In this document: one piece after another, positions 8,971-60,085 of the stretch | How the letters are laid out: each line of letters starts with the position of its first letter | Numbering within the stretch: the stretch's first letter is position 1 | NCBI GenBank assembly: GCA_038203955.1 | Contig: JBBRDK010000001.1 | Coordinates: forward strand, 4,030-68,029 | Source of the DNA: Thermoanaerobaculia bacterium | GTDB lineage: Bacteria; Acidobacteriota; Thermoanaerobaculia; UBA5066; Gp7-AA6 | Length of the DNA stretch: 64,000 nt | Reading direction: 5' to 3' | Translations under genes and position numbers: made by a program | The notes under the pieces: model-generated | The model's database searches: none | The model's input: the letters and a program-made list of their open reading frames with translations, nothing else | Told to the model about the DNA's origin: nothing

Positions 8971-8982
8971 CGCGCGCTCTTT

Positions 8983-11790: not shown

Positions 11791-11793
11791 TCA

Positions 11794-17536: not shown

Positions 17537-18274
17537 GTGACCCGGTCTCTTGTTCGCCGGTCTCTCATTCTCTTCGCTCGCGAGCCTTCCCGCGAGGCTC
17601 GCGCGAAGGGTTTTTCGGCGAGCGGGGCGGCCGAGCTGTTCGCCTCTTTCGCCACCGGATGGCTCGAAGCAGCCGAACGGGCCGGAGCGCGGCTCGTGGT
17701 CGCAGCGCCCGCGGAGGACCTCGCCGCCTGGCGCACGCGTCTCCCGTCCGACCGCGGCATCGCCTGGATCGCGCAGCGCGGCCGATCCTTCGGACAGCGT
17801 CTCGAGGAGAGCGCCCGCCGGATCGCCGTGGAGGGCGGCTCCGCGGTGCTCGTAGGCGGCGACGTCCCGCCGAGCGCTCGCGCCGCGTGCCGGGCGTTCG
17901 ACGCCCTCGACCGCGGGGCCGGCGCGGTGCTCGCGCCGTCGCCCGACGGCGGCGTCTCCTTGATCGCGGTCGGCGCCGAAGACCTCGATCTCCTCGGGTC
18001 TCTGACGGCCGGCAGCGCCGGCGTGTTTTCGACGCTCGCCGAGGCTCTCGCCGATCGCGGGCGGGCGGTCGATCTCATCGATATCGCCCCCGACGTCGAT
18101 GGCCGCGTGGACCTGCGCCGGCTCGTTCGCGCCGGTCTTCTCCTCGCGTCTCGGTCTCTCGCGCGACGCGCGCTTGCCCTTCCTTCTTCGCCCCGGGCCG
18201 GTCACCGTCCCGCGCCACGAACGCTCCTCCTCGCCGGCCCCTCGGGCCTTCGCGCTCCTCCCGCCTTCGCGTAG
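17537..18274 (+). CDS. DUF2064-family protein (TIGR04282-like, rSAM-associated putative transferase)
   Basis: A GTG at 17537, downstream of the trxA terminator, is the likely start. LILFAREPSREARAKGF...VLVGGDVPP...APSPDGGVSLIAV matches the DUF2064 pattern as I remember it. The C-terminal ~50 aa are Arg/Pro-rich and overlap the next ORF, so the true end or next start is uncertain. Confidence 0.55.
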   Translation: MTRSLVRRSLILFAREPSREARAKGFSASGAAELFASFATGWLEAAERAGARLVVAAPAEDLAAWRTRLPSDRGIAWIAQRGRSFGQRLEESARRIAVEGGSAVLVGGDVPPSARAACRAFDALDRGAGAVLAPSPDGGVSLIAVGAEDLDLLGSLTAGSAGVFSTLAEALADRGRAVDLIDIAPDVDGRVDLRRLVRAGLLLASRSLARRALALPSSPRAGHRPAPRTLLLAGPSGLRAPPAFA

Positions 18275-18353
18275 CGACTCCTCCGTAGTCGAAACGCAAT
18301 TCCGGCCTCCGCGCCGGATCAAGCCGGCCTCCGGGCAGGAAGGTGGGTCATCC

Positions 18354-19265
18354 GTGTACGAATCGGTCTCCAGCGCTCCGCAGGGCCTCTCTCCGTCACC
18401 GGGAGGCGCGTATCCGTTCGTGCCGTCGGTCTCCCTCGACACGCTGTGGTTCCAGGTCGCGGGGACTCTGTGCAACCTGAAGTGCACACACTGCTTCATC
18501 TCCTGCTCGCCCACGAACCACAACCACGAGATGCTGAGCCTGAGGGAGGTCCGCGATCGGCTCGCGGAGGCGATCCCGCTCGGGGTGCGGGAGTACTACT
18601 TCACGGGCGGCGAGCCGTTCATGAACCCGGAGATGCTCGCCATCCTCGAAGAGACGCTGCGGCAGGGGCCCGCCTCCGTGCTCACCAACGGCCTCTTTCT
18701 GACGCCGGAGCGGTGCCGGCGCCTGAAGACGCTTTCCGATCAGAGCGACTACTCCCTCGACATCCGAATCTCGATCGACGGATACACGGCGGAGTCGAAC
18801 GACCCCATCCGGGGCGCCGGCACCTACGACAGGATCCTGGCGGGAATCCGCAATCTGGCCGCCGCGGGATTGAACCCGGTGCTCACCGTCACCGAGGCGT
18901 GCGGCGAGGCTGCGAGCGCCGAGGGGCGCATCCGGTTTCTCGGATGGCTGCGCGAGATCGGCCTTCCCCGGCCGCGCCTGAAAGTCCTGTCGCTCTTTCG
19001 CATCGGCGCGGAGGAGCAGCGTCTCCGGGCATACGAGTCCTGGGAATCCCTGAGGGGCCGCGGCCTGACGACGGACGAGTCCGAGAAGCTCCAGTGCTCC
19101 TCCTGCCGGATGGTGACGTCCCGCGGGGTTTACGTGTGTCCCATCCTGATCGACGAGCCCTCGGCGCGCATGGGGTCCACCCTCGGGGAGACCCTGCGGC
19201 CGTTCGAGCTCGCCCACGCGGCGTGTTTCACGTGCCACGAGTTCGGCGTCACGTGCCGGACGTGA
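18354..19265 (+). CDS. Radical SAM protein with a C-terminal Cys-rich domain (ArsS/TIGR04167-like)
   Basis: It has the CNLKCTHC (Cx3Cx2C) motif followed by SPTNHNHEML, a GGEP motif (FTGGEPFMNPE) and a C-terminal CSSC...VCP...CFTCHEFGVTC. The start was chosen at GTG 18354 after GGAAGG, but it could lie further upstream (the ORF opens at 18099). Confidence 0.75.
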   Translation: MYESVSSAPQGLSPSPGGAYPFVPSVSLDTLWFQVAGTLCNLKCTHCFISCSPTNHNHEMLSLREVRDRLAEAIPLGVREYYFTGGEPFMNPEMLAILEETLRQGPASVLTNGLFLTPERCRRLKTLSDQSDYSLDIRISIDGYTAESNDPIRGAGTYDRILAGIRNLAAAGLNPVLTVTEACGEAASAEGRIRFLGWLREIGLPRPRLKVLSLFRIGAEEQRLRAYESWESLRGRGLTTDESEKLQCSSCRMVTSRGVYVCPILIDEPSARMGSTLGETLRPFELAHAACFTCHEFGVTCRT

Positions 19266-19305
19266 GAGCGCGGGAAGCGGAAAACCGGAGACGGGGAGCG
19301 TTCGG

Positions 19306-20097
19306 ATGAGCGCGGCGCCCGTCCGGCTCGCGTTCTTCGGCGGCATCTACAACAACTGGCGGGCGCTCGAGGCCGCGGCTGCTGACGTTCGCCGCGAGGG
19401 CGCAGACGCCTTGTACGCGCTGGGCGATTTCGGAGGATTTGGCCCGCACCCCGACCGCGTTTTCCCGATTCTCCTGGAGTCCGGCGCCCTGGCGATCCAG
19501 GGAAACTACGAAGAGTCGCTCTCGACGGGAGCCACCGACTGCGGCTGCGGCTACACGGATCCCCGCGACAACCACTTCGCCCAGATCTCCTACGACTACA
19601 CGGCAGCCAACACGTCCGCGTCGTGGAAAACGTGGATGGGCTCGCTTCCCGGCACGAGGAGGCTCGACGTCGATGGCCGGCGGGTGCTCCTCGTTCACGG
19701 CTCGCCACGGAAGATCAACGAGTTTCTGTGGGAGTCAAACTCACCCGTTCCGTTTCTGGAAAAGCTCTTGACCGACTTCGAAGCGGACGTGCTCGTGTGC
19801 ACGCACACGGGGCTTCACTGGACGCGGCGGCTGCCTTCCGGAAAGGTCGTCGTGAACGCCGGCGTGCTCGGGCGGCCGGCCAACGACGGCGCGACGAATG
19901 TCTGGCACACCCGCGTGACGTTTGGCCGCGACGTCGATGTCGAGTTCGTCCCCGTCGCCTATGACCATGAGGCGCTCGCCCGGGAGATGGAGGAGGAGCG
20001 GCTCCCGCGCGAGTTCGTCGAGACCATCCGCACCGGCTGGTGGACGACCTGTCTCGAGATCCTTCCCGCCAAGGAACGCGAAAGAGGAAGGCATTGA
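19306..20097 (+). CDS. Metallophosphoesterase family protein
   Basis: 263 aa with motifs LGDFGGFGP, GNYE, LLVHGSP and VCTHTG (calcineurin-like phosphoesterase signature order), plus an unusual CGCGY insert. Confidence 0.8.
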   Translation: MSAAPVRLAFFGGIYNNWRALEAAAADVRREGADALYALGDFGGFGPHPDRVFPILLESGALAIQGNYEESLSTGATDCGCGYTDPRDNHFAQISYDYTAANTSASWKTWMGSLPGTRRLDVDGRRVLLVHGSPRKINEFLWESNSPVPFLEKLLTDFEADVLVCTHTGLHWTRRLPSGKVVVNAGVLGRPANDGATNVWHTRVTFGRDVDVEFVPVAYDHEALAREMEEERLPREFVETIRTGWWTTCLEILPAKERERGRH

Positions 20098-20134
20098 ACC
20101 GCTGGAAGAACCCCGGCCAGAAAGCGAGCCCGAG

Positions 20135-21454
20135 TTGACGCGTCCCGACATCCATTCTTCCCGCTCCCGATCCGCGCTCCTCTTCCTGTCTCTCGCGGCG
20201 GCCGCCCTCTCTCTGCACGCCCAGGCGCCGCCGCCGACACCGACGCCCGCTCCCGGGGGCGAGAACCCGTCTCCCGCATCGCCCGATGAGGCGAAGATGC
20301 GCGCGGAAGTCGAGCGGCAGATGAAAATGATGGAGGGCAAGCGCTGGACCGTCGGCCTGAACCCGAACGGCGGCGGCGCGTACATCAAGTCTCCCGACGG
20401 CAAGGTCTACTTCCGGCTCTACGGGTACGCTCAGCCGATCTTCACGCTGACGGACGCCTCGAATGCGCAGGCGTTCGGGACGACGGATTTTCGCGTCCGC
20501 CGGGCACGGCTCGATTTCTCCGTCGACTACGACGACGTGTGGAAGCTCTTCATCGAGATCGACGGGCAGGGGAGTGGCGGCGGAACGGCTCTGCTCGAAG
20601 GCTACGTCCAGTCCTCCTACGTCAAGGGACGCCACTATCTCCGGTTCGGCAAGTTCATTAGCCCCTTCTCGTCCGAGAACCTCCGTTCCTCGCGCGCCCT
20701 CGACACGGTCGAGCGGTACATCGCTCTCAACACACTGTTCGGCCTCCCCGGCGTCGACGTGCAGTTCGGTCCGATGGCCTGGGGCTACGTGGACGCGGGG
20801 CGCAAGCTCACGTACTACGCCGGCGTCTTCAACGGTAACGCGAGCGCGGCCGTGAGCACGGTCAACGGGTACGGAGGCAACGCCCGCGACAACAACAAGC
20901 AGAAGGAGTTTCAGACCCGTCTGAACTTCCAACCGGTCAAGGAGCTCACGATCGGCGGCGCTTTCGACTATGACCAGGAGCTCGACCAGAATCTTCAGCT
21001 CACGAGCTACTCCGGCGCGAAGTTGATCGCGGTGACGGTCCGCGGCAAGCGGCGCGGATACGACGCGGATCTTCACTGGAAGAAGGAGAGATGTTCCTTC
21101 GACGCCGAATGGCTCCACGTGGACTTCCCCGACAACCCGACCAACGCCCATCGGGACGTCAAGCTCCACGGCGGTTACGCCCAGGCCGGCTACTGGGTGA
21201 AAGGGAATGAGACGAAGGGCATCCAGGGAATCCTGCGCGGAGAGTATGCCGAGCTCGAGGGGCCGGCCGTCGAGAGCGTGCGAGGCCGCACGATCACCGC
21301 GATCACCGGCGGCGTGAACATCTGGTTCAACGGCTGGACGCGTCTCCAGATCGACGCGATTGAGGAGCACGTCAACGGCAACGGGAATGGCGCGTACACC
21401 GGCGGCTCGAAGTGGAGGCCGACTCTTCTGACCGAGCTGCAGGTGAAGTTTTGA
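20135..21454 (+). CDS. Phosphate-selective porin O/P-like outer-membrane porin
   Basis: TTG at 20135 is the likely start (uncertain). It has the signal peptide SALLFLSLAAAALSLHAQA, a Pro-rich linker, the beta-barrel sequence FRLYGYAQPIFTL... and ends ELQVKF. Confidence 0.7.
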   Translation: MTRPDIHSSRSRSALLFLSLAAAALSLHAQAPPPTPTPAPGGENPSPASPDEAKMRAEVERQMKMMEGKRWTVGLNPNGGGAYIKSPDGKVYFRLYGYAQPIFTLTDASNAQAFGTTDFRVRRARLDFSVDYDDVWKLFIEIDGQGSGGGTALLEGYVQSSYVKGRHYLRFGKFISPFSSENLRSSRALDTVERYIALNTLFGLPGVDVQFGPMAWGYVDAGRKLTYYAGVFNGNASAAVSTVNGYGGNARDNNKQKEFQTRLNFQPVKELTIGGAFDYDQELDQNLQLTSYSGAKLIAVTVRGKRRGYDADLHWKKERCSFDAEWLHVDFPDNPTNAHRDVKLHGGYAQAGYWVKGNETKGIQGILRGEYAELEGPAVESVRGRTITAITGGVNIWFNGWTRLQIDAIEEHVNGNGNGAYTGGSKWRPTLLTELQVKF

Positions 21455-21476
21455 CTTCCAACGGCGGGAGAAATCG

Positions 21477-22487
21477 ATGAAGAGAATCCTCACGGGGCTC
21501 GCCGTGGCGGTATTCCTGACCGGGACAGCGCCTGCGCAGGAAAAGACCGTCATCCAGTACGACTGCATTCCTAACTACGCCAACTGGGGCGGCGTGACCG
21601 CGCTCTACAAGCAGAAGACGGGCGTCACGGTGCCGCCCGACCCGAAGGGGTCCTCGGTGGCGCTCGCCGCGATCGAGAAGGAGAAAGACAGCCCGGTGGC
21701 CGACACTGCCTACTACTCGGGCGCGATCGGTTACTCGGCGGCGCAGAAGGGCCTGCATCAGCCCTACAAGCCCCGCGGCTGGGACAGGATCCCCGCGGAC
21801 CTGAAGGATCCGACCGGGCTCTGGTGGACCGTCCACACGGGAACGATCGCCTTCGTCGTCAACACGTCGGCGCTCGGCGGCGCCGCCGTCCCCCGGTCGT
21901 GGGCCGACCTTCTGAAGCCCGAGTACAAGGGGAAGATCGCCTACGACGACCCGACGTGGGGCGGCACCTCCTACACGATGCTCTACGGCTTGAACGGGCT
22001 CTTCGGCGGAGACGAGAAGAACTACAAGCCGGGTCTGGATTACCTGAAAAAGCTGGACGCCAACGTGCTCTCGTACCCGCGCGAGTCGATCTACAACGGC
22101 GTGCTCCGGGGCGAGGTGCCGATCTGGATCAACGCCGACGGAAACGGGTACAAGATGAAAAACGCCGACAACGGGCCGATCGAGGTCGTGCTCCCTAAGG
22201 AGGGCACGTTCTCGATGCCGCTCGTCATGGGAATGGTCCGGGGCGCGCCGCATCCCGACGAGACCCGGAAGTATCTCGACTGGCTGCTGACGGCCGAGGC
22301 GCAGGCGGAGTTCTCGCGCGGATTTTTCCGGCCCGTGATCGAGGGGACGATTCCGCCGGAGATCGCCTCGAAGTTCCTGCCCGCGGCGGACTATCGCCGC
22401 GCGCGCACTCTCGATCTGGCGAAGATGGCTTCCGCCGCCGACGCCTTGAAGAAGGCCTGGCTCGACGAGATCCGGAGGGGACGCTGA
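21477..22487 (+). CDS. ABC transporter periplasmic substrate-binding protein (PotD/AfuA/PhnS-type family)
   Basis: 336 aa with the signal peptide MKRILTGLAVAVFLTGTAPAQ and an SBP family-1-like sequence. Confidence 0.8.
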   Translation: MKRILTGLAVAVFLTGTAPAQEKTVIQYDCIPNYANWGGVTALYKQKTGVTVPPDPKGSSVALAAIEKEKDSPVADTAYYSGAIGYSAAQKGLHQPYKPRGWDRIPADLKDPTGLWWTVHTGTIAFVVNTSALGGAAVPRSWADLLKPEYKGKIAYDDPTWGGTSYTMLYGLNGLFGGDEKNYKPGLDYLKKLDANVLSYPRESIYNGVLRGEVPIWINADGNGYKMKNADNGPIEVVLPKEGTFSMPLVMGMVRGAPHPDETRKYLDWLLTAEAQAEFSRGFFRPVIEGTIPPEIASKFLPAADYRRARTLDLAKMASAADALKKAWLDEIRRGR

Positions 22488-22506
22488 CCCGGGTACCGAG
22501 GGACCG

Positions 22507-23361
22507 TTGACCTCCCGCGGGCGGAAGAGCGCGGAGGACCCGATCGGGCCGTCCGCCGCGTGGATCGCGCCCGCGGCGCTGTTTCTCCTCGTCGCCTTCG
22601 TCGCTCCCTTCGCCGCTCTCCTGCGCGCGGCCTCGCACGGGGATCCCGGGGCATTCCTTCGCGAGTTCGGCGGAGTCTGGACGCAGCCGCACACGAGGCG
22701 CGCGCTCGGCAACGGGCTCGCGCTTTCGGCCGCCGTTTCCATCGGCGCCATCCTTCTCTGCCTGCCTCCGGCGCATCTGCTCGCCCGCGCCCGCTTCCGG
22801 GGCCGCGGGGCCGCGCGGCTGCTCCTCTCCGTTCCGCTCGCTTTTTCCGGGGTGATCGTCGGCTTTCTCGCCGTCGTGATGCTCGGCCGGGTGGGGTTCG
22901 TTCCCGCCGTCGCGCAGGCGCTCTTCGGACGGCCGCTCGGGGCCGGGCTCGCCTACGCGCTGCCGGGACTCTTCCTCGCGTACCTCTTTTTCGAGATTCC
23001 CCGGGCGGTGCTCGCCCTGGAGGCGGCCTTCGCGCGCCTGGACCCCGAGCTCGCCGCGGCGGCCCGCACGCTCGGCGCCGGTCCGGTGCAGCGCTTCGCG
23101 CGCGTCACCCTTCCCGCCCTGCGGCCGGCGCTCCTCGCGACATTTGCCACGACGTTTTCCGTCTCTCTCGGGTCGTACGGCGCGGCACTGATTCTGTCCC
23201 GGCGATTTTCCGTACTGCCGGTCGAGGCGTACCAGGAATTCACCGCCTTCGGCAACGACGCGGGCGCTTCCGCCATGGCGATCTGGCTCGCCGCGATCTC
23301 GATCGTGGTTTCGATAGCGGCGCGACGGGCTTCGCTCCGCGCACCGGAAGGGACGGGGTGA
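22507..23361 (+). CDS. ABC transporter permease
   Basis: 284 aa with ~6 TM and an EAA-like loop (ARTLGAGPVQRFARVTLPALRPAL). Confidence 0.85.
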   Translation: MTSRGRKSAEDPIGPSAAWIAPAALFLLVAFVAPFAALLRAASHGDPGAFLREFGGVWTQPHTRRALGNGLALSAAVSIGAILLCLPPAHLLARARFRGRGAARLLLSVPLAFSGVIVGFLAVVMLGRVGFVPAVAQALFGRPLGAGLAYALPGLFLAYLFFEIPRAVLALEAAFARLDPELAAAARTLGAGPVQRFARVTLPALRPALLATFATTFSVSLGSYGAALILSRRFSVLPVEAYQEFTAFGNDAGASAMAIWLAAISIVVSIAARRASLRAPEGTG

Positions 23362-24179
23362 CGGGCTCGTCGGGGGAACGGCTACGGTCCGCCTCCGCGG
23401 CCGCGCTCCTCCTTCTCCTCCTCGCGGTGGTCGCGGCGCCTCTGGCCGTCGTTGTGGCCGGATCCGTTCTCGACCCACGCCTTCTCGGCCTGAGCAGCGA
23501 GAGCTGGGAGGCGGGCTCCCGGCACACCACCTGGTTCTCGTACGTTCTTTCTCTCTACGGGCGGCACCTCGCCCGCTCCGCGGCGCTCGCGCTCTGCGTC
23601 GTCGTTCTGGCGTTCGCCCTGGGCGCGCCCGCGGCCTACGGCCTGTCGCGCCGCAGGGATGCGTTCGCGCGCGCCGTGGCCGTTCTGCTGGACACTCCGC
23701 TCGCCGTGCCGGGCCTCGCGGTGGCGATCGGACTCCTCCTCGCCTATCCGAGAGCGCGAGCGAGCGGGGCGACGCTCGCGGCCGGCCACCTCGTCTATGC
23801 GCTTCCGTTTTTCGTGCGCGCCGCCGGCAACGCGCTTTCCGGGGGAAACGTCTCGGAGCTCGAGGAGGCCGCGGCCGTGTCGGGCGCCGGACGGTGGCAG
23901 CGGTTTCGCCGGATCGTTCTGCCTCTCGCCCGGCCCGGGCTCCTCGCCGGCGCGCTGATGGCGTTCACGATCTCGTGGGGGGAGTTCAACGTCTCCTTCC
24001 TCCTTTCAACGCCGACGACGTCGACGTTTCCCTCGGCCCTCTACCTCACCTACACGACGAACAGCTTTCCGGTGGCGGCGGCGGCGACCACGCTCTTTCT
24101 CGCGGCGGCCGTTCCGGCGCTCGCCCTTCTCCAGCGCATCGCTTCCCCCGAGGCCGCGCGATTCGGGGAGGCGGCGTGA
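23358..24179 (+). CDS. ABC transporter permease (second subunit)
   Basis: The GTG at 23358 overlaps the upstream stop (GTGA). It has an EAA loop AAAVSGAGRWQRFRRIVLPLARPGL. The N-terminal part of the 22560..24179 track ORF was rejected. Confidence 0.85.
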   Translation: MTGSSGERLRSASAAALLLLLLAVVAAPLAVVVAGSVLDPRLLGLSSESWEAGSRHTTWFSYVLSLYGRHLARSAALALCVVVLAFALGAPAAYGLSRRRDAFARAVAVLLDTPLAVPGLAVAIGLLLAYPRARASGATLAAGHLVYALPFFVRAAGNALSGGNVSELEEAAAVSGAGRWQRFRRIVLPLARPGLLAGALMAFTISWGEFNVSFLLSTPTTSTFPSALYLTYTTNSFPVAAAATTLFLAAAVPALALLQRIASPEAARFGEAA

Positions 24180-28937: not shown

Positions 28938-28979
28938 CACTGAGAACTGAAAACTGACAACTGATAACTGACAACTCCT
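28938..28979. repeat. Heptamer array CACTGAG AACTGAA AACTGAC AACTGAT AACTGAC AACTCCT
   Basis: Read directly. It begins 11 nt after the macB-permease stop and is preceded by the small palindrome TCTCAG CA CTGAGA (28932-28945). Confidence 0.9.
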
Positions 28980-28996
28980 CCCCCTGCCCGTAGAAT
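28968..28996 (+). promoter_or_regulatory. Sigma70-like promoter CTGACA-N17-TAGAAT, with the -35 formed by the last heptamer unit
   Basis: -35 at 28968-28973, a 17-nt spacer, and -10 at 28991-28996. It is upstream of the histidine kinase. Confidence 0.4.
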
Positions 28997-29044
28997 GTTC
29001 GTACAAACCATGTCTGATCTCCGGTCCTCCGGGATCCCCCCGCG

Positions 29045-32474: not shown

Positions 32475-32502
32475 GTCAGCTTTCAGCTGTCAGCTCTCAG
32501 CC
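32475..32502. repeat. Heptamer array GTCAGCT TTCAGCT GTCAGCT CTCAGCC
   Basis: Read directly. It is intergenic, between the MBL hydrolase stop and the Fe-S protein start. Confidence 0.85.
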
Positions 32503-37013: not shown

Positions 37014-37057
37014 GGGAAGTTGAGAGTTGAGAGTTGAGAGTTGAGGGTTGAGAGTGA
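37006..37057. repeat. Heptamer array (AGAGTTG/AGGGTTG)x~6, preceded by two GGGAAGTTG junctions
   Basis: Read directly. The array overlaps the TGA stop (37011-37013) of the DUF4149 gene and lies between convergent genes. Confidence 0.9.
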
Positions 37058-37094
37058 GCGCTTAACCTTCCGCATTCCGCCTCCCGCCTCCCGC

Positions 37095-37478
37095 CTACCG
37101 TACTCTTGCAATCACGTCGATCTCGAGCGGTGCTCCCTTCGGCAGCCCGGCGACCGTGACCGTCGACCTCGCGGGCCGGTGCTCGCCGAACCGCCGGGCG
37201 TAAACGGCGTTCATCGAGGGAAAGTCCTCGGTCCGTGTCAGGTAGACGGTTGCCTTCACCACGTCGGAGAATGTGAGCCCGCCTTCGCGCAGGACGGCCT
37301 CCAGGTTGTCGAAGATGCGCTCCGCGGATTTCTCGATGCCGCCCGTGACGAGCTCGCCGCTCTCGGGATCGAGCGGGATCTGACCGGAAGCGTAGAGGAA
37401 TCCCCCTTCAATGACGGCCTGAGAGTACGGGCCGATGGCCTTCGGTGCGCCCTCCGTCGCGAGATATTTCATGGTCAT
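37095..37478 (-). CDS. ridA: RidA family reactive-intermediate deaminase
   Basis: The ATG at 37478 starts MTMKYLATEGAPKAIGPYSQAVIEGGFLYASGQIPLDP...VEIDVIA-type sequence, 127 aa. Confidence 0.9.
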   Translation of the reverse strand: MTMKYLATEGAPKAIGPYSQAVIEGGFLYASGQIPLDPESGELVTGGIEKSAERIFDNLEAVLREGGLTFSDVVKATVYLTRTEDFPSMNAVYARRFGEHRPARSTVTVAGLPKGAPLEIDVIARVR

Positions 37479-38065
37479 CTCCGGCTCTCCGCCGTTTCCC
37501 GTTTCCCGTTTTCCGTTTCCCGGCCCTCGTTCCCCGCTTCCGGCTCCGGTTCGAGGATCCCGATGAACGGAAGGTTGCGATACATCTCGGCATAGTCGAG
37601 CCCATAGCCGACGACGAAGTGATCGTCGATCGTGAAGCCCAGGTAATCGACCGGGATCCCGTCGTTGCCGGCGATCTTCTTCTTGAGCAGAGCGCAGATC
37701 TTGACCGACTTGGGATGCCGCGTGCCGAGGAGCTCGATGATCTTCGTCAACGTCCGGCCCGTGTCCACGATGTCTTCCACGATGATGACGTCCCGGCCCG
37801 CGACGTCCGTCGACAGATCGCGCTGAAGGCGCACGTTCCCGGAGGACTTCGTCCCCGACCCGTAGGAGGAGACCTGAAGGAAGTCGAGCGACACGGGCGT
37901 CGTCTGGAGCTTCTTGGCCAGGTCGCACAGGAAGAAAATCGAGCCCTTGAGGATGCCGACGAGCAGGGCGGGACGCCCGGCCTGGTCGCGGTCGATTTCG
38001 GCCGCGATGCGGGCGACCCCGGCGTCGAGGGTCGCGGCGTCGATGAGCGTCTGGCCCAGTTTCAC
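37475..38065 (-). CDS. hpt: Hypoxanthine phosphoribosyltransferase with a repeat-encoded C-terminal tail
   Basis: 196 aa with a GTG start, the PRPP motif VIIVEDIVDTGRT and a conserved end YRNLPFIGIL. About 25 extra residues follow, encoded by the GTTTCCC array. The stop overlaps the ridA ATG (ATGA). Confidence 0.9.
   Translation of the reverse strand: MKLGQTLIDAATLDAGVARIAAEIDRDQAGRPALLVGILKGSIFFLCDLAKKLQTTPVSLDFLQVSSYGSGTKSSGNVRLQRDLSTDVAGRDVIIVEDIVDTGRTLTKIIELLGTRHPKSVKICALLKKKIAGNDGIPVDYLGFTIDDHFVVGYGLDYAEMYRNLPFIGILEPEPEAGNEGRETENGKRETAESRR
37494..37521. repeat. Heptamer array GTTTCCC GTTTCCC GTTTTCC GTTTCCC (complement GGGAAAC)
   Basis: Read directly. It lies inside the 3' end of the hpt ORF and is followed by GGCC, giving the GCCGGGAAAC junction on the complement. 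Confidence 0.9.
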
Positions 38066-39779: not shown

Positions 39780-41321
<1,542 letters not shown>

Positions 41322-41329
41322 GGAGAGGC

Positions 41330-41409
41330 GGGAAACGGGAAACGGGAAACGGGAAACGACGGGGGCAACCCGATCGGGGCCGGGAATCGGGAATCGGGAA
41401 TCGGAAATC
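41330..41409. repeat. Composite: (GGGAAAC)x4, a 24-nt spacer, (GGGAATC)x3 plus GGAAATC, then GAAAG
   Basis: Read directly. It starts 9 nt after the lysS stop and ends 37 nt before the lolC/E start. Confidence 0.95.
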
Positions 41410-41445
41410 GAAAGTAGGAGTCTGTCGGGACGGGGCGCGATTCGC

Positions 41446-48782: not shown

Positions 48783-48914
48783 CGGTCCCTCGACGGGACC
48801 GTAAGGGAGCAGGCGGCCGCGCGGGTAACAGCCCATGGCGTAGATAGGGGAGTCGCGCTGAAGGCGCGGGTTCCGGGTGCGCTCGACCCCCGGAATGGAG
48901 CCGTTTTCCGGCTG

Positions 48915-48942
48915 TTGTAGCCCCCGGGGAGTCTGCTACTAT
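48915..48942 (+). promoter_or_regulatory. Sigma70-like promoter TTGTAG-N16-TACTAT upstream of skp
   Basis: -35 at 48915-48920 and -10 at 48937-48942. A ~35-nt leader with SD AAGGAG precedes the ATG at 48985. Confidence 0.3.
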
Positions 48943-48984
48943 TTCGCGTTCTCGCCGCCCACGATTACGTTTAAGGAGCTTGGA

Positions 48985-49674
48985 ATGAAACGCATTGCCC
49001 TTTCCATCCTGACGGCGGGCGTCACGGCTGTCGCCGCCGCTCAGACGGGCGCCACGGCCCCGGCCGCGGGCGCCGTCTCCGGGAGCGGCTTCTCCGGGCC
49101 CGTGGCCATCATCAACTCCCAGCGCCTGGCGCTGGAGTCGGCCCCGGGCAAGGAAGCCTACGGCCGCCTGAAGAAGCTGTCGGACCAGAAGAAGGAAGAG
49201 CTCGACAAGGTCGAAAAGGATGCCCGGGACCTCGTCCAGAAGTTGAACGACCAGGGTCAGTCCATGCCCGCCGACAAGCGCGAGGCACTCGAGAAGCAGG
49301 CCGACGATCGGCAGAAGGCCTGGAAGCGGATGCAGGAGGACGCCCAGAAGGACCTGCAGGAAGCCGAGAAAAAGGAGATGGGCTCGCTCGAGGGCCGCAT
49401 CGGTCCGATCGTGAAGGACTTCTTCAAGGAGAAGCGCTACGCCGTCGTCCTCGACTCCCGCGCCGGCATCATCTACGCGGACGAAGCGACCGACGTCACC
49501 GACGAGGTTTTAAAGCGGATCAATACGACCGTCGCTCTTCCGAAGCCGGCGGGCGCGACGGGCGCCGCGGCCCCGAAGGCTCCGGCGGGCTCGACCGGTC
49601 CCGCAGCGTCGAAGCCTCCGGCCGGCACCGCCGCCGCGCGGCCGACGCCCGCCCCCGCCGCGAAAAAGCAGTAA
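48985..49674 (+). CDS. skp: OmpH/Skp family periplasmic chaperone with a Pro/Ala-rich C-terminal tail
   Basis: The ATG at 48985 follows AAGGAG. It has the signal peptide MKRIALSILTAGVTAVAAAQ and a coiled-coil KK/EE-rich core. Confidence 0.8.
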   Translation: MKRIALSILTAGVTAVAAAQTGATAPAAGAVSGSGFSGPVAIINSQRLALESAPGKEAYGRLKKLSDQKKEELDKVEKDARDLVQKLNDQGQSMPADKREALEKQADDRQKAWKRMQEDAQKDLQEAEKKEMGSLEGRIGPIVKDFFKEKRYAVVLDSRAGIIYADEATDVTDEVLKRINTTVALPKPAGATGAAAPKAPAGSTGPAASKPPAGTAAARPTPAPAAKKQ

Positions 49675-53919: not shown

Positions 53920-54885
53920 GTGGTCACCGGATCGGTCGCGTTCGACTACCTCATGACGTTCCCAGGCCACTTCGTGGAGCACCTGATCCCCGACCAGCTC
54001 TCCCGGCTGTCGGTCTCCTTCCTGGTGGACGAGATGCGCCGGGTCGAGGGCGGATGCGCGGCCAACATCGCGTACGGGCTCGCGCTCCTCGGCGAGCGCC
54101 CTCTGCTTTTCGCGACCGCCGGACCCGACGCCGAGGCCTACCGCGACCGCCTCGGAAAGGAGGGCGTGGACGTCTCCGGGCTGAAGCTGTGCCCGGACGT
54201 GTTCACGGCGTCCTTCTTCGTGTCGACGGACCTCGACCAGAATCAGATCGCTTCTTTCTACACGGGCGCGATGGCACGGGCCCGGGACCTGTCGATCGCG
54301 GCGCTCGACGCGTCCGACTGCGCGGTTGTGCTGATCTCCCCGAACGATCCGGAGGGGATGGCGCGGTACGCGCGGGAGTGCCGGTCGGGCGGGATTCCCT
54401 TCATCTACGACCCGAGCCAGCAGGTGGCCCGCTTGACCGGGGAGGATCTCGCCCGGGGGCTCGAAGGGGCGGCCATCCTGATCGCCAACGACTACGAAAT
54501 GGGGATCCTCACGCAGAAGACCGGTTGGACGGCGCCCGAGATCGAGGCCCGGGTCCCGGTCGTGATCGAGACTCACGGGGCGGAGGGCTCGACGATCGTT
54601 CTCTCGGGCCGGGAGCGCCATCGCATTCCGGCCGCCCGTCTCGAAGGGGACGCCCTCGACCCGACCGGGGTGGGCGACGCGTTCCGCGGCGGCCTCGTGC
54701 GGGGAATACGCGCGGGCTTGTCCTGGGAGATCGCCGGCCGGATGGGAAGCATCGCAGCGGTCTTCGGCCTGGAAGCGCAGGGCCCCCAGCCGCCGCGCTA
54801 CCCGATCGCGCGCTTCATAAAGCGCTACGAATCCAACTTCGGCAAAGAACCGGAACTGGAGACTCTGCGGAGAAATCAGCCTTAG
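53920..54885 (+). CDS. PfkB-family carbohydrate/nucleoside kinase (adenosine kinase-like)
   Basis: The start is uncertain; GTG 53920 was chosen. It has VVVTGSVAFDYL, GGCAANIAYGLALLG and the C-terminal DPTGVGDAFRGG anion-hole motif. Confidence 0.75.
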   Translation: MVTGSVAFDYLMTFPGHFVEHLIPDQLSRLSVSFLVDEMRRVEGGCAANIAYGLALLGERPLLFATAGPDAEAYRDRLGKEGVDVSGLKLCPDVFTASFFVSTDLDQNQIASFYTGAMARARDLSIAALDASDCAVVLISPNDPEGMARYARECRSGGIPFIYDPSQQVARLTGEDLARGLEGAAILIANDYEMGILTQKTGWTAPEIEARVPVVIETHGAEGSTIVLSGRERHRIPAARLEGDALDPTGVGDAFRGGLVRGIRAGLSWEIAGRMGSIAAVFGLEAQGPQPPRYPIARFIKRYESNFGKEPELETLRRNQP

Positions 54886-54915
54886 GTCCCGACCGAGATC
54901 TGTAGTCTTCCTTTC

Positions 54916-55038
54916 GATTCCCGATTCCCGATTCCCGATTCCCGATTCCCGATTCCCGATTCCCGATTCCCGATCTAGTTGACCGCGGAGTACCGCGGCC
55001 GTCTCGCTCCCGTTGGTCGCTCGGCTCCCGTTTCCCGG
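54916..55038. repeat. Composite element: (GATTCCC)x8, a 59-bp unique core, then GTTTCCCGG
   Basis: The eight perfect units are at 54916-54971. The core at 54972-55030 is identical to 59425-59483. Confidence 0.95.
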
Positions 55039-55116
55039 CCGTGCCCCGGCAGGTGCTAACATCCTCCCTCTTCAAAGAGGATCCGATCCTTGAACAGCCG
55101 TCGTGTCGTCCGCGGT

Positions 55117-55590
55117 ATGGGCCCAGCCCTCTTCGCCCGGGAGGTCGAGGGGGAGGCTGACGCGTCGAAGCTGCGGATCACGGTCGTGTGCGCCCGCTGG
55201 AATCCGACCGTCACGGACGCTCTTCTCTCCTCCGCGCTCGGAGCCCTCGCGGAATGCGGCGCGAAGCCGGGGAACGTGATGGTCGTCCGTGTCCCGGGCG
55301 CCTTCGAGCTGCCGGCCGCTTCCCGCCTCGCTCTCGCCTCGAAGACCTGCGATGCCGTCGTCGCTCTCGGGGCGATCGTGCGCGGCGAGACCACTCATCA
55401 CGAGGTCCTGGGAAATGCCGTGGGCGCTGCGCTCGCGTCTCTCTCCGCGGAGACGGGCCGGCCGATCGGATTCGGCCTGTTGACCTGCGAAACCATGGAA
55501 CAGGCCCGGGCCCGCACGGGCAAGGGCGCGGAAGCGGCGGAGGCGGCGGTCGAGATGGCCAACCTCCGGCGCCGGATGCGGGCGAGCTGA
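55117..55590 (+). CDS. ribH: 6,7-dimethyl-8-ribityllumazine synthase
   Basis: ATG 55117 is preferred over TTG 55090. It has RITVVCARWNPTVTDALLSSAL, VPGAFELP and LGAIVRGETTHHE. Confidence 0.9.
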   Translation: MGPALFAREVEGEADASKLRITVVCARWNPTVTDALLSSALGALAECGAKPGNVMVVRVPGAFELPAASRLALASKTCDAVVALGAIVRGETTHHEVLGNAVGAALASLSAETGRPIGFGLLTCETMEQARARTGKGAEAAEAAVEMANLRRRMRAS

Positions 55591-56012
55591 TGGGGGCGCG
55601 GCGCAAGGCGCGGGAGCTCGCGCTCCAGATGCTTTTCGAGAACGACGTGGCCGGCACCGCTCCCCAGGAGATGTTCGACCGCAGCTCGGACCTGCAGAAG
55701 GCGTCCGCGACACTGCGCGATTTCACCGAGCGGCTCGTTTCCGGGACGCTGACCCGCCGCGAAGAGCTCGACGAGATCATCACCCGGCAGGCGGACCACT
55801 GGCGCCTGGCCCGCATGCCGATCGTCGATCGCAACATCCTGAGGCTCGCCCTCTTTGAGCTCCTCCACGAGCCGGCCACCCCGCGGCCCGTGGTGATCGA
55901 CGAAGCGCTCGAAATCGCCAAGCGGTTCTCCACACCCCGGTCCTCGCAGTTCATCAACGGCATCCTGGACGGGGTGCTGAAGTCCCGGCCCGGCGAAGGT
56001 CCGGCGGCGTGA
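55590..56012 (+). CDS. nusB: Transcription antitermination factor NusB
   Basis: The ATG at 55590 overlaps the ribH stop (TGATG). It has RRKARELALQMLFE, DRNILRLALFELL and INGILDG. Confidence 0.9.
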   Translation: MGARRKARELALQMLFENDVAGTAPQEMFDRSSDLQKASATLRDFTERLVSGTLTRREELDEIITRQADHWRLARMPIVDRNILRLALFELLHEPATPRPVVIDEALEIAKRFSTPRSSQFINGILDGVLKSRPGEGPAA

Positions 56013-56896: not shown

Positions 56897-59374
56897 ATGG
56901 CGGAAAGATACGACCCGATCGAGCTGGACAGGAAGTGGCAGCGCCGCTGGGAAGACGCCGGCGTTGCCTTCGTCGACACGTCCGACGGCGCGGACAAGTT
57001 CTACATGTTGAACATGTTTCCCTATCCCTCCGGAAGCCGTCTCCACGTCGGGCATGGCCGCAACTACATTCTCGGCGACGCCCTCTACCGGCGGGAGAGG
57101 ATGGCGGGCCGCCGCACGTTGAACCCGATGGGCTGGGACGCCTTCGGCCTGCCGGCGGAGAACGCCGCCATCGCGGGCGGCGTCCCGCCCCGGGAATACA
57201 CGACCGGCAACATCGCGCGGATGAAGGAGCAGCTGAGGAGTCTCGGCTTGCTCTACGACTGGTCCAAGGAGCTGGCATCGTGCGACCCGGCCTACTACCG
57301 CTGGAACCAGTGGCTCTTCCTCCGGATGTGGGAGCGCGGGCTCGCCTACCGCAAGACGGCTCCCGTGAACTGGTGCCCGGGTTGCCGCACCGTCCTGGCC
57401 AACGAGCAGGTGGTCGACGGCCGCTGCGAGCGCTCGGGAGACGCGGTCGAGATCCGCGACCTCACGCAGTGGTTCTTCCGGATCACGGACTACGCCGAGC
57501 GGCTCCTCGCGGGGCTCGAGACCGTCGAGTGGCCGGAACGCGTCAAGGTCATGCAGCGCAACTGGATCGGGCGGTCGGAAGGCGCGGAAGTGTTCTTCCG
57601 CGTGGACGCGCTGGCGGAGCCCATACCCGTCTTCACGACGCGGCCGGACACGCTCTTCGGCGCGACGTTTCTCGCGCTCGCTCCGGAGCACCCCGCCGCG
57701 GCGCGCCTCGCGCAGCGGTCCCCTTTCTCGGGAGACCTGACGCGTTTCATCGAGCGGGTGCGGCGCAGCTCCCGGCTCGAGCGCGAGTCGGAGACGGGGG
57801 AGAAGGAGGGGATGGACACGGGGATCACCGCGTTGAACCCGGCGACCGGCGAGACGATCCCGGTCTGGCTCGCCAACTTCGTTCTCCCCGACTACGGCAC
57901 CGGCGCGATCATGGGGGTGCCGGCGCACGACCAGCGGGACTTCGAGTTCGCGCGCCGGTACGGGCTTCCGATCCGGCCGGTCTATCGGTCGAACGCTCCG
58001 GACGCTCCCGAGCCCGACCCCGACGCCATGACGTCGGCCGTCCCGCACGGAGGCGTTCTCTACCGGTCCGGCGACTGGAACGGAACGGCAAACGGGCCCG
58101 CCGCGGTCTCGAAGGCGATCGACTGGATCGAGGCGCGCGGACTCGGCCGGGGCCGGGTGGGCTACCGGCTCCGCGACTGGCTCATCTCGCGGCAGCGCTA
58201 CTGGGGAACGCCGATTCCGGCGGTGCATTGTCCCGACTGCGGCGTGCTGCCGGTGCCCGACGACGAGCTCCCGGTCCTTCTGCCCGAAGACGTCGCTTTT
58301 CGCGGAGCGGAAGGAAATCCTCTCGAGCAGTCCGAGGCGTTCGTTGCGACGTCCTGCCCCGGCTGCGGCGGCCCGGCGCGCCGCGAAACGGACACGATGG
58401 ACACGTTCGTAGACTCGTCCTGGTACTACCTCCGTTTCCTAAACCCGGGGGATTCGAGCCGGATGGTCGACTCCGAACGCGCGGCGAAATGGATGCCGGT
58501 CGATCAGTACGTCGGGGGCATCGAGCACGCGATCCTCCACCTCCTCTACGCGCGCTTCATCTGCCGCGTCCTGAAGGACCTCGGTCTGGTGGAGCTCGAG
58601 GAGCCGTTTGCGCGGCTGTTCAACCAGGGAATGATCACAAAGTTGAATCCCGCGTCGGGGAAGATCGAGAAGATGTCGAAGTCGCGCGGCAACACGGTCT
58701 CTCCCGACGAGCTCATCGCCCGGTTCGGAGCGGACACGGTGCGCGTCTACACCCTGTTCATCGGCCCGCCGGAGAAGGAATCGGAGTGGTCGGAGGAGGG
58801 CGTGGCGGGGGCGTGGCGCTTTCTGCAGCGTGTGCACGACGTCTGCGCCCGCGCGGAGGCGCTGCCTGCGGGCGAGCGCGCCGCGGATTCTCCGCTGACG
58901 CGTCTCGCGCACCGGACGATCCAGCGCGTGACCGAAGATGCGCAGCGCTTTCACTTCCACACCGCGGTCGCCGCGCTGATGGAGTTTCAGCGGGGGATGG
59001 CGGAAGCGCTCGACTCGGGCGCCGAGGCTCCCGGCACGGTCCGCTGGGCCGCCGAGACTCTGGCCCAGTTACTTCATCCGGTCGCGCCGCATCTGACGGA
59101 GGAGTGGTGGGAAAGGTTCGGCCACCGCACGTTTCTGCTCGACTCTTCGTGGCCCGCCTTCGACTCCTCACTCGCGACGACGGAGCGGGTCACTCTCGTC
59201 GTCCAGGTCAATGGAAAGGTCCGCGGCCGGCTCGACGTCGAGCGGGGAGCGCCGGAGCCGGACGCCCTCGCCTTAGCGCGCGCCGACGAGAAGATTCGGA
59301 CGTGGATCGACGGGAAGGAGATCGCCCGCACCGTCTACGTGCCCGACCGGCTGTTGAACCTGGTCGTGCGGTGA
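56897..59374 (+). CDS. leuS: Leucine--tRNA ligase
   Basis: 825 aa with the HIGH-type motif (PYPSGSRLHVGHGRNY), the KMSKS motif (KMSKSRGN) and a CP1 editing domain. Confidence 0.95.
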   Translation: MAERYDPIELDRKWQRRWEDAGVAFVDTSDGADKFYMLNMFPYPSGSRLHVGHGRNYILGDALYRRERMAGRRTLNPMGWDAFGLPAENAAIAGGVPPREYTTGNIARMKEQLRSLGLLYDWSKELASCDPAYYRWNQWLFLRMWERGLAYRKTAPVNWCPGCRTVLANEQVVDGRCERSGDAVEIRDLTQWFFRITDYAERLLAGLETVEWPERVKVMQRNWIGRSEGAEVFFRVDALAEPIPVFTTRPDTLFGATFLALAPEHPAAARLAQRSPFSGDLTRFIERVRRSSRLERESETGEKEGMDTGITALNPATGETIPVWLANFVLPDYGTGAIMGVPAHDQRDFEFARRYGLPIRPVYRSNAPDAPEPDPDAMTSAVPHGGVLYRSGDWNGTANGPAAVSKAIDWIEARGLGRGRVGYRLRDWLISRQRYWGTPIPAVHCPDCGVLPVPDDELPVLLPEDVAFRGAEGNPLEQSEAFVATSCPGCGGPARRETDTMDTFVDSSWYYLRFLNPGDSSRMVDSERAAKWMPVDQYVGGIEHAILHLLYARFICRVLKDLGLVELEEPFARLFNQGMITKLNPASGKIEKMSKSRGNTVSPDELIARFGADTVRVYTLFIGPPEKESEWSEEGVAGAWRFLQRVHDVCARAEALPAGERAADSPLTRLAHRTIQRVTEDAQRFHFHTAVAALMEFQRGMAEALDSGAEAPGTVRWAAETLAQLLHPVAPHLTEEWWERFGHRTFLLDSSWPAFDSSLATTERVTLVVQVNGKVRGRLDVERGAPEPDALALARADEKIRTWIDGKEIARTVYVPDRLLNLVVR

Positions 59375-59389: not shown

Positions 59390-59490
59390 CGGAAATCGGG
59401 AGTCCGGACCTCCCTTCGATTCCCGATCTAGTTGACCGCGGAGTACCGCGGCCGTCTCGCTCCCGTTGGTCGCTCGGCTCCCGATTTCCG
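59390..59490. repeat. 101-bp element bounded by a 13-bp perfect inverted repeat (CGGAAATCGGGAG / CTCCCGATTTCCG), containing the 59-bp core
   Basis: The left arm is at 59390-59402 and the right arm at 59478-59490. The core at 59425-59483 is identical to 54972-55030. It lies between the leuS stop and the lptE start. Confidence 0.9.
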
Positions 59491-59508
59491 ATTCCCGGCT
59501 CGCTCCTC

Positions 59509-60003
59509 GTGGTTCTCTTAGCGGCGTCCGCGGCCGGCTGCGGGTACTCGCTCGTCGGGACGAGCTCGACCCTTCCGGCTTCGATCAAAGTGGTTCAATT
59601 CGAGACGCTGCTCAACCAGACGTCGCGCGTCGGGGTCGAGCAGCGACTCTCCCGCGAGATCGCGCGGGAGCTCGCCAGCCGCGGCCGGTTTTCCGTGCAG
59701 TCGGCGGCGGCGGGCGCCGACGCGAGCTTGACGGGAGCCGTGATCGGCTTCGACCTCTATCCGATCGCCTTCGACGAGCAGGGACGGTCCAAGGAATATC
59801 AGGTCCGCATCACCGCGCGAGTCTCCTTGAAGAGCATCGCCGACGAGAAGGTCCTCTGGGAGAACCCGTCCTACTCGTTCCAGGAAAACTACACGTTCTC
59901 TACGAGCGCCGCCTCCTACGTGGATCGGGAGAATGAGGCGATCGAGCGGGTGGCGGAGCGGTTCGCGGAGAGCCTGGTCGCGAACCTGCTGGAAGGGTTC
60001 TAG
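59509..60003 (+). CDS. lptE: LPS-assembly lipoprotein LptE-like
   Basis: It sits in the conserved position after leuS. It has the lipobox-like AASAAGC followed by GYSLVG and LptE-like strands. The only canonical in-frame start is GTG 59509, which gives a very short signal peptide. Confidence 0.55.
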   Translation: MVLLAASAAGCGYSLVGTSSTLPASIKVVQFETLLNQTSRVGVEQRLSREIARELASRGRFSVQSAAAGADASLTGAVIGFDLYPIAFDEQGRSKEYQVRITARVSLKSIADEKVLWENPSYSFQENYTFSTSAASYVDRENEAIERVAERFAESLVANLLEGF

Positions 60004-60004
60004 C

Positions 60005-60082
60005 GAGTTGTCGGTCGTCAGTTTTCAGTTCTGAGTCGCCGGTGTCTCGGATCCCATCCAGATAACTGATAACTGATAACTC
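60005..60082. repeat. Two partly complementary heptamer arrays: (TTNTCRG)x4 at 60008-60035 and (CTGATAA)x3 at 60059-60079
   Basis: Read directly. It lies between the convergent lptE stop (60003) and rpsT stop (60086). Confidence 0.85.
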
Positions 60083-60085
60083 TCT

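Follow-up and report, generated by a model that had tools for sequence, protein, structure and literature searches.

The window analysed here, a stretch of 64,000 nucleotides from a Thermoanaerobaculia bacterium, carries two copies of a short intergenic module, which we call the core, each set among tandem heptamer repeats. An earlier, sequence-only reading of this DNA had noticed that positions 54964-55030 and 59417-59483 are identical over 67 nt on the same strand, that both copies lie between genes and that both are embedded in GATTCCC/GTTTCCC heptamers, and on all three points it was right. Copy 1 lies between a PfkB-family kinase gene (53920-54885, + strand; PF00294, E = 7e-33) and ribH, encoding lumazine synthase (55090-55590, + strand; PF00885, E = 2e-44), which is followed by nusB (PF01029, within 55188-56012). 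Copy 2 lies between leuS (56897-59374, + strand), with class I tRNA synthetase and LeuRS editing domains, and lptE (59509-60003, + strand; PF04390 LptE, E = 2e-16), which starts 10 nt past the right flank of the copy; the neighbours of both copies have Pfam support. A pattern search that allowed three mismatches recovered the 59-nt form of the core, GATCTAG...CTCCCG, at 54972-55030 and 59425-59483, both on the + strand and both with 0 mismatches, and recovered it in 0 of 100 dinucleotide-preserving shuffles. In a repeat search of the window the similarity of the pair reaches over 74 nt, 97% identical with two mismatches, and nhmmer with a profile of the family described below finds just these two copies.

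In copy 1 the core proper comprises 56 nt, CTAGTTGACCGCGGAGTACCGCGGCCGTCTCGCTCCCGTTGGTCGCTCGGCTCCCG, at 54975-55030 on the + strand (nhmmer envelope 54960-55038, E = 1e-23), and the identical 56 nt of copy 2 stand at 59428-59483 on the same strand (envelope 59415-59497, E = 8e-25). Each contains the perfect palindrome CCGCGG-AGTA-CCGCGG (54983-54998 and 59436-59451, without strand), already recognised by the earlier reading as a hairpin, which could form a 6-bp stem or serve as a candidate dyad-symmetric binding site. Further along the + strand, two TCGCTC direct repeats (55004-55009 and 55017-55022 in copy 1; 59457-59462 and 59470-59475 in copy 2) flank a triplet, GTT (55012-55014 and 59465-59467), that varies in the family. 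The earlier reading had also counted two rare CTAG sites per core; the rarity holds, with 13 CTAG in the window against ~194 expected from base composition (~15-fold under-represented), but there is one site per core, within GATCTAG, not two. The cores account for 2 of the 13.

The flanks of the two copies differ. Copy 1 is preceded on the + strand by TTTC, eight GATTCCC units and GAT (54912-54974), the C-rich strand of a GGGAATC-type heptamer array (54915-54974 by Tandem Repeats Finder (TRF), period 7, 8.6 perfect units, 100% matches), and is followed by one unit, TTTCCCG (55031-55037, + strand). Copy 2 has one unit plus GAT on its left (TTCGATTCCCGAT, 59415-59427, + strand) and two units on its right (ATTTCCGATTCCCGG, 59484-59498, + strand). 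If the 51 nt from CTAG to CGGC (59428-59478) are removed from copy 2 on paper, an in-phase array of four units remains: GATTCCC, GATTCCC, GATTTCC and GATTCCC. The array start YYTTTCGATT recurs, on the opposite strand, at a core-less array of the window (41381-41419). In the leuS-lptE spacer, CGGAAATCGGGAG (59390-59402, + strand) is the inverted partner of 59478-59490 (CTCCCGATTTCCG), and their pairing closes a long hairpin across the whole spacer, with a minimum free energy (MFE) of -75.9 kcal/mol (z = -4.2) on the + strand and -77.6 (z = -4.9) on the - strand; this hairpin is a peculiarity of copy 2, not a feature of the family. LptE itself begins at a GTG (59509) and has its lipobox (AAG|C) after ~10 residues (59509-59545), unusually short for a lipoprotein signal peptide; upstream of this GTG, within the element, there is no in-frame start codon, and the alignment of a relative resumes at 59507.

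The two copies are consensus members of an interspersed repeat family of ~56 nt that has so far been seen only in Thermoanaerobaculia/Acidobacteriota assemblies. An exact 24-mer of the core, CTAGTTGACCGCGGAGTACCGCGG, scanned against one genome per GTDB species, occurs at at least 47 loci in at least 9 species-level metagenome-assembled genomes (MAGs), all labelled Acidobacteriota or Thermoanaerobaculia; JAIVJS01, JBDUBP01, JBBQNC01, JBDTRB01, JBBSGZ01, JALYUA01, JBBROA01, JBBQDF01 and JBDTXY01 are among the matches listed. The core gave 0 matches in viral contigs and 0 in plasmids, on which grounds we rejected a phage or plasmid vehicle, and its sequence had no match in the literature text searched. 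Most family counts given below cover ~390 kb, made up of MAG-fragment loci chosen by the 24-mer (numbered L007, L013 and so on) together with the window. Over this DNA, nhmmer with a profile built from the 24-mer copies finds 60 copies, ~11 of them not selected by the 24-mer, which gives a density of roughly 1 per 30 kb. Metagenomes tell of far larger numbers: in soil and sediment samples containing the window's organism, words of the core reach depths of 3,500-24,000x against ~10 in single-copy flanks, core depth is 100-2,000x flank depth in soil metagenomes, and in a run labelled as a single organism the core stands at 61,885 against a base depth of ~43. Because core depth so far exceeds flank depth, copy number is of the order of 10^2-10^3 per genome. 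The identity of the window pair had been put down, among other causes, to recent duplication; as each copy simply matches the family consensus, and the family numbers hundreds per genome and is present in at least 9 species-level MAGs, a recent local duplication is not what it reflects. Nor do the two doubts entered at the time apply, namely that only two copies might exist through an assembly duplication, or that the core might be unconserved and untranscribed.

What is conserved in this family is an ordered series: CTAG, TTGA, CCGCGG-AGTA-CCGCGG, and then TCGCTC-N7-TCGCTC around one variable triplet, with CTAGTTGA standing before the hairpin. The consensus of 49 copies is CTAGTTGACCGCGGAGTACCGCGGCCGTCTCGCTCCC-GTT-GGTCGCTCGGCTCCCG, with nearly all columns at 0.9-1.0; conservation stays at 0.9-1.0 from CTAG to about +53 and is ~0.8 at +54/+55, and it is weaker in the left flank (YYTTTCGATTCCCGAT, 0.6-0.9) and in the right flank at +57..+63 ((A/T)TTCCCG, 0.63-0.92). 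The triplet scores 0.90/0.71/0.96, its middle base being the 0.71, with neighbours at 0.96 or more, and the TCGCTC repeats, 13 nt apart, surround the family's only variable positions. The same holds in contigs from four metagenomes, where variants at 1% of depth or more fall in the triplet only, at 59465/59466/59468 in copy 2 numbering; the palindrome, fixed in the MAG loci by the 24-mer search pattern, shows no variant at or above 1% in the metagenome contigs, and a metagenome scan aimed at copies with a mutation at stem position 3 yielded 5 chance matches, none of them a member of the family. In related MAGs, two to four cores can follow one another in direct tandem, at periods of 58-80 nt (L018, 1620-1760; L028, 1342-1608; L030, 6809-6950), and L018 and L030 are orthologous loci that both have the double copy.

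The association with heptamers is equally regular. The core is usually nested in or beside GATTCCC/GTTTCCC arrays, with direct, GATTCCC-type units on both sides, and GAT abuts its left end and TCCC its right in 23 of 40 canonical copies. These units are the C-rich strand of GGGAAWC, which by its G3-N4 pattern is predicted to be of the G-quadruplex type. The 390 kb contain 37 arrays of this kind, 19 adjoining a core and 18 core-less; array and core have the same orientation in 19/19 of the former, and 11 of the latter have exactly four units. Once the cores are masked, the intergenic 14-mers that still recur are heptamer arrays only, and because of this the core is the only non-microsatellite dispersed module in the data examined. 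Taken alone, the flanks are repeats of the GGGNATC type: the (GATTCCC)x8.6 flank of copy 1 has the two or more tandem heptamers by which such simple sequence repeats (SSRs) are defined, a definition that applies to the flanks only, and the flanking arrays share with these SSRs an intergenic location, scarcity between divergent open reading frames (ORFs) and a preference for four units.

Heptamers are common elsewhere in the window. Two core-less G-rich arrays, (CGGGAAA)x4.3 at 41329-41358 and (CGGGAAT)x4.3 at 41381-41419, begin 8 nt past the stop of the gene at 39780-41321 with GACGGGGGCAACCCGATCGGGGC between them, and with four G3 tracts apiece they just reach the number that a G-quadruplex requires. 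Nearly every window spacer longer than ~80 nt holds tandem heptamer arrays of several unit types (276-349, 8901-8947, 10306-10338, 11703-11787, 28939-28976, 32476-32501, 37018-37100, 37492-37522, 41329-41410 and 60006-60081), among them GACTCTC x10.6, CGGGAAA, ACGCTCA, TCAGTTC/AAACTGA, TCAGCTN, AGTTGAG, CCTCCCG, CCGTTTC, CGGGAAT and GATAACT. The same unit types recur in related MAG loci, and the lineage seems to fill its spacers in this way throughout the genome; our literature searches found no published description of heptamer repeats in Acidobacteriota. Arrays of the NAACTGA/TAACTGA type stand at 11756-11787, 28939-28976 and 60061-60081, with inverted partners at 11703-11721 and 60006-60036, and the inverted TCAGTTN...NAACTGA arrays fold as long hairpins (11691-11793, MFE -35.4, z = -3.4; 60004-60085, -30.9 kcal/mol, z = -4.0). 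The second of these sits between the convergent lptE and rpsT, and such hairpins may act as terminators that lack a U-tract. A longer tandem repeat, with a 36-nt unit (49546-49626; 2.2 copies, 80% matches, TRF score 99), lies inside a predicted gene (48895-49674) and is followed by a CCG-rich tract (49628-49661).

Where do the cores sit relative to genes? Genes in the loci were called with a GC3-based caller, which recovered the Pfam-confirmed genes around the two window copies. Cores occupy 18/44 convergent spacers, 28/220 tandem spacers and 2/45 divergent ones (convergent versus divergent, p = 3e-5). In tandem contexts the core is in the sense orientation 18 times and antisense 15 times (p = 0.73), which amounts to no orientation bias with respect to transcription. 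There is a positional asymmetry: the 3' (C-rich) side of the core is nearer to a gene boundary than the 5' side in 36/49 cases (medians 27 versus 66 nt, p = 0.0014). In convergent spacers that 3' side ends up ~10 nt away from where the gene on the opposite strand has its stop codon, and in 30/49 contexts the 5' side of its G-rich strand follows the stop codon of a same-strand gene at a median of 10-23 nt. Contigs from three metatranscriptomes carry the core with flanks on both sides, at a depth of 2-5, strandless and with DNA carry-over possible, and they show no more than that longer RNAs can include the core. At copy 2, the leuS-lptE spacer of one relative is only ~24 nt, and lptE is almost certainly co-transcribed with leuS; because read-through from leuS into the essential lptE is almost certainly required, copy 2 is probably no strong terminator in its own orientation. 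Hexamers resembling a -10 element (TATAAT, TAGAAT, TACAAT, GATACT) lie ~8-15 nt upstream of ATG codons at 8966-8985 and 28990-29012 in the window and downstream of cores in L031, L016 and L023, from which it seems that mRNAs of this lineage often have a very short leader or none.

Is the core merely copied faithfully, or is it also held constant where it stands? Five orthologous locus pairs among the MAG fragments (L007/L013, L036/L042, L016/L024, L018/L030 and L024/L030), 78-88% identical overall, bear on this. Pooled over the pairs, identity is 0.949 in the core (299/315), 0.684 at third codon positions (p = 2e-30 against the core) and 0.734 in other intergenic DNA (p = 2e-20), a comparison conditional on pairs having been sampled for a 24-mer kept in both members, from which retention rates are not estimable. 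The 5' 24 nt of the core are those fixed by the search; the 3' 32 nt, which the search left free, are also ~95% identical in the orthologues, as counted from the alignments. Two orthologous copies, L024:6291 and L030:3593, have in common a private TTT triplet, which points to inheritance rather than re-conversion. Together, the 95% identity of orthologous cores and the shared triplet argue for constraint in place and not only at the moment of copying, and the constancy of the core is best explained, from these alignments, by purifying selection.

The same comparison of relatives shows the family being gained, lost and tandemly duplicated at heptamer boundaries. Spacers between leuS and lptE in relatives are core-less, measure ~24, 76 and 95 nt and are unlike in sequence, with the whole array-plus-core block gone rather than the core alone, and between PfkB and ribH 81 unlike letters, with no core, take the place of the region. 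Another locus, L025, is 88% identical to window positions 17819-23970 and has a slightly truncated copy where the window has at most a decayed 3' half: what is left in the 40-nt spacer at 19266-19305 is CCGTCTC..CGGT..CTTCCCG, similar to the core's 3' half and consistent with a copy that would have lost its 5' 33 nt by a deletion at CCG microhomology and then decayed. Tandem duplications with a period of 58 nt, that is 51 nt plus one heptamer, are present in L018 and appear as back-58 joints in five metagenome runs. The sequence-only reading had left selection, gene conversion and duplication or transposition side by side as causes of the identity; selection has gained support, and so has a repeated element that comes and goes, both window sites being core-less in ~85-90%-identical relatives, and the idea that the two copies are recent local duplicates has fallen.

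Searches for known kinds of element and signal were largely empty. Rfam 15 gave 0 hits in the whole window at the gathering threshold and chance-level matches only in E-value mode (E at least 2), and the 78-nt consensus, folded as RNA and as DNA on both strands, showed no significant structure (z between -0.6 and +0.5); on these two results a structured RNA was discarded as a candidate. A discrete small RNA, one of the possibilities first raised, is likewise unlikely, given the absent Rfam hit, the fold z of ~0 and the 18:15 orientation. Consensus scans for sigma-70 promoters (-35/-10, 16-18-nt spacing) and for intrinsic terminators (hairpin plus U-tract) found 0 sites at both copies. No terminal inverted repeats were seen across the family, pairing that spans the core being no better than with shuffled flanks, and copy-by-copy comparison of left and right 7-mers gave no target-site duplication outside the array context. 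The notion that the flanking arrays form a family-wide long hairpin with the core as its loop was also dropped, since duplex energies equalled those of controls and spanning pairs numbered 10.0 against 12.6 with shuffled flanks. No transposase was recognisable, by eye and not by profile search, among the proteins encoded beside cores, including those between the inverted copies of L040 and L044; such inverted copies are ~1 kb or more apart with ordinary-looking genes between them, and the other copies are singletons or direct tandems 58-80 nt apart. Coding sequence was considered too: a TTG-initiated frame makes the triplet a codon, and all three codon positions are equally invariant, which disposed of it. 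By their defining features, then, the core family belongs neither with REP/REPIN elements nor with MITEs, intrinsic terminators or any Rfam family, and its flanks alone fall under a known kind.

The foremost of several readings, which we put forward as a proposal, is that the core is a protein-recognition module maintained by selection, in the manner of the repetitive extragenic palindromic (REP) and bacterial interspersed mosaic elements (BIMEs), and that recombination or slippage at the heptamers on either side brings copies in and takes them away. The reasons for thinking of protein recognition are the invariance of everything except a central spacer, a layout in which direct repeats follow a dyad, the absence of RNA structure and the fact that either orientation is tolerated. 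The core would then be a sequence-specific module for a trans-acting protein, with the palindrome as a dyad site, the TCGCTC pair as a second contact and the central triplet as a spacer that is not contacted. It would probably act at the level of DNA, since its orientation relative to transcription is irrelevant, and by analogy with REP/BIME it may be a protein-binding landmark in 3'-end intergenic space beside structure-prone arrays. Its invariance would be kept in place by purifying selection, while its gain, its loss and its tandem duplication, in units of 58 nt with TCCCGAT at their bounds, would be the work of recombination or replication slippage between flanking heptamers, not of a classical cut-and-paste transposase.

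Several observations weigh against this proposal. Fifty-four invariant nucleotides are long for a single DNA-binding site, decayed copies exist (19266-19305 compared with L025), and the orthologue comparison carries the sampling condition already given. Gene conversion, by making copies evolve in concert, could imitate some of the conservation of the core, and a transposase that has gone unseen and accepts no change in its substrate would leave the same invariance if the copies were for the most part young. The proximity of the 3' side to gene boundaries could be explained by an RNA-level role of the G-rich strand in 3' untranslated regions (UTRs), and the metatranscriptome contigs make transcription of the core possible.

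The principal rival, which we rate as possible and less probable than protein recognition, is a non-autonomous mobile element of the REP, PATE or MITE kind, mobilised in trans by a dedicated enzyme, most likely a single-strand HUH transposase of the RAYT or IS200/IS605 type. Such an enzyme would recognise the CCGCGG-AGTA-CCGCGG hairpin and insert the element 3' of ..CGAT in the C-rich strand of an array, and the invariance would reflect substrate needs and recent bursts. In favour of this rival are a copy number in the hundreds per genome, the absence of the core from both window sites in relatives that are ~90% identical, a conserved left junction (T at -1 in 90% of copies, GAT in 28/40) and the fixed orientation relative to the array; the lack of target-site duplications and terminal inverted repeats matches IS200/IS605 and REP systems, and the avoidance of divergent, promoter-bearing spacers is shared with insertion sequences and MITEs. 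Structure-prone arrays could moreover expose single-stranded DNA to the enzyme. The rival explains orientation and the missing duplications well; it does not readily explain conservation in place, that is, orthologous cores 95% identical despite near-saturated synonymous sites, with one pair sharing a private triplet. It also has to contend with a hairpin of only 6 bp in an element most of whose conserved sequence is non-palindromic, with copies that are singletons or direct tandems instead of inverted, REPIN-like pairs, with relatives that are without the whole array-plus-core block and not the core alone, and with the failure to recognise a transposase beside the cores of L040 and L044 by eye, short of a profile search.

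An RNA-level cis element is possible and less likely than either of these. On this account the core would work in 3' UTRs or intercistronic RNA, mainly on the G-rich strand just past stop codons, as a site for an RNA-binding protein or RNase or as a stabiliser of mRNA 3' ends together with GGGAAWC RNA G-quadruplexes. The placement of the G-rich strand in 30/49 contexts and the asymmetry that accompanies it fit such a role, as do the enrichment of copies at gene 3' ends and the metatranscriptome contigs that run through the core; copy 2 lies within a likely leuS-lptE operon and so must be transcribed, and the Xanthomonas GGGAATC repeats are mostly transcribed according to the passages concerned in PMC4692102. 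Set against these are the even split of orientations in tandem contexts, the lack of significant secondary structure on either strand, and an invariance at every position, with neither wobble nor a compensatory pattern, that is atypical of structured RNA; the metatranscriptome signal is in any case shallow, strandless and open to DNA carry-over.

We consider it improbable, but worth stating, that the core is the predicted recognition site of an undescribed, lineage-specific chromosomal system, or else a cassette that spreads by array homology with no transposase. In the first form a protein would dock at hundreds of gene 3' ends beside G-quadruplex/i-motif arrays and manage transcription-replication conflicts, supercoiling or read-through. 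Were either form true, bacterial repeats would have gained a way of spreading or a function not described before, and the long-unexplained heptamer microsatellites would gain a testable partner.

A transcription signal, whether an intrinsic or bidirectional terminator or a promoter with TTGACC as its -35, is very improbable. The location at gene 3' ends, the enrichment in convergent spacers, the GC-rich hairpin and the resemblance of TTGACC to the -35 consensus are in its favour; the stem is just 6 bp, there is no U-tract on either strand, the TCTCGC that stands 17 nt downstream of TTGACC is no -10 element, and the consensus scans were empty at both copies. Cores are moreover nearly absent from divergent, promoter-bearing spacers, and copy 2 lies 10 nt before the essential lptE, where a spacer of ~24 nt in a relative makes read-through from leuS almost certainly a requirement. 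That the repeat is an artefact of assembly, or was duplicated recently and only within this contig, can be dismissed with near certainty, as nothing but the perfect identity of the two copies speaks for it, the window copies have different flanks (8.6 heptamer units versus 1 on the left, unlike on the right), and at least 47 independent loci in 9 MAG assemblies, as well as many independent metagenome runs, have unique flanks each.

What does such a family add? The core family is new; interspersed intergenic repeats in bacteria are a kind already known, and new repeat families are common, their functions rarely settled. REP, ERIC and BOX repeats, like the GGGAATC, TAACTGA and STRR heptamers, have been known for decades with function unsettled, and the core family links the two kinds. 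A 56-nt module that is near letter-perfect across species and over very many copies in soil metagenomes, nested in G-quadruplex-type arrays at gene 3' ends, is unusual, and should it prove merely selfish, the degree of constraint on it would remain out of the ordinary. Its invariant palindrome and direct-repeat layout offer a concrete bait for recovering a binding protein, and a binder could explain why the arrays are maintained. The core is also a practical sequence marker for an uncultivated Thermoanaerobaculia clade in metagenomes, where it breaks assemblies and contigs end at it.

Among known systems, miniature inverted-repeat transposable elements (MITEs), such as the Neisseria Correia/NEMIS elements, and the IS200/IS605-derived PATEs resemble the core family in being short, non-coding, multi-copy and polymorphic for presence. 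PATEs and IS200/IS605 elements also lack terminal inverted repeats and target-site duplications, neither of which was seen here, and they insert beside a short fixed target in fixed orientation. No related autonomous element was found in the DNA covered, the core has a single short hairpin in contrast to the two subterminal ones of MITE/PATE systems, and orthologous cores are constrained in place. ERIC/IRU and pneumococcal BOX elements are likewise interspersed intergenic repeats, conserved across species above the neutral level and debated as to function, and BOX, with a variable number of tandem sub-units, shares the modularity of the core family. Neither matches it in sequence or architecture, ERIC being a 127-bp imperfect palindrome and BOX being put together from boxA/B/C modules, each 45-59 nt long, and heptamer microsatellites enclose neither of them.

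The arrays, too, have counterparts. TAACTGA direct repeats are abundant and intergenic in Beggiatoaceae, Cyanobacteria and Bacteroidetes, with Acidobacteriota not among the hosts (MacGregor 2015, PMC4679880), and in Beggiatoaceae they sit just upstream of start codons (PMC4679880); the NAACTGA arrays of the window at 28939-28976 and 60061-60081 share this unit type, are not adjacent to a core and differ in heptamer from GATTCCC. The quadruplex-forming GGGAATC/GGGNATC repeats of Xanthomonas and Nostoc (Rehm et al. 2015, PMC4692102) are, in the passages concerned, intergenic, rare between divergent ORFs, prone to four units, without strand preference and nearer the 5' ORF on the G-rich strand. 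The flanking (GATTCCC)n and (GTTTCCC)n arrays are the complement of GGGAATC and GGGAAAC and obey the same positional rules, and the occasional inverted pairs that form hairpins in those passages (PMC4692102) are a further likeness. As described there, these repeats are pure microsatellites, and the passages mention neither an embedded conserved unique module nor Acidobacteriota (PMC4692102). The core itself, unlike them, is no heptamer array, and the quadruplexes of its flanks are a prediction.

The REP/BIME elements of enterobacteria and pseudomonads may be compared in their differences first. A REP measures 20-40 nt, is imperfectly palindromic and has a GTAG/GTGG head at its 5' end; REPs often stand in inverted pairs (REPINs) and are linked to a RAYT (Y1 HUH) gene. 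Here 16 of 56 conserved nucleotides are palindromic and the fold z is ~0, the hairpin is preceded by CTAGTTGA instead, all 60 copies stand singly or in direct tandem, and no transposase was recognisable among the flanking proteins inspected by eye within the ~390 kb of MAG fragments. Conservation of the core across species is also much tighter than is usual for REPs. The likenesses lie mainly in deployment: in both cases the short extragenic copies run to hundreds, occupy tandem and convergent spacers but seldom divergent ones, occur within operons and combine with other short motifs into mosaics, and both have a hairpin rich in GC. Gyrase, IHF and Pol I bind to REP/BIME elements in E. coli.

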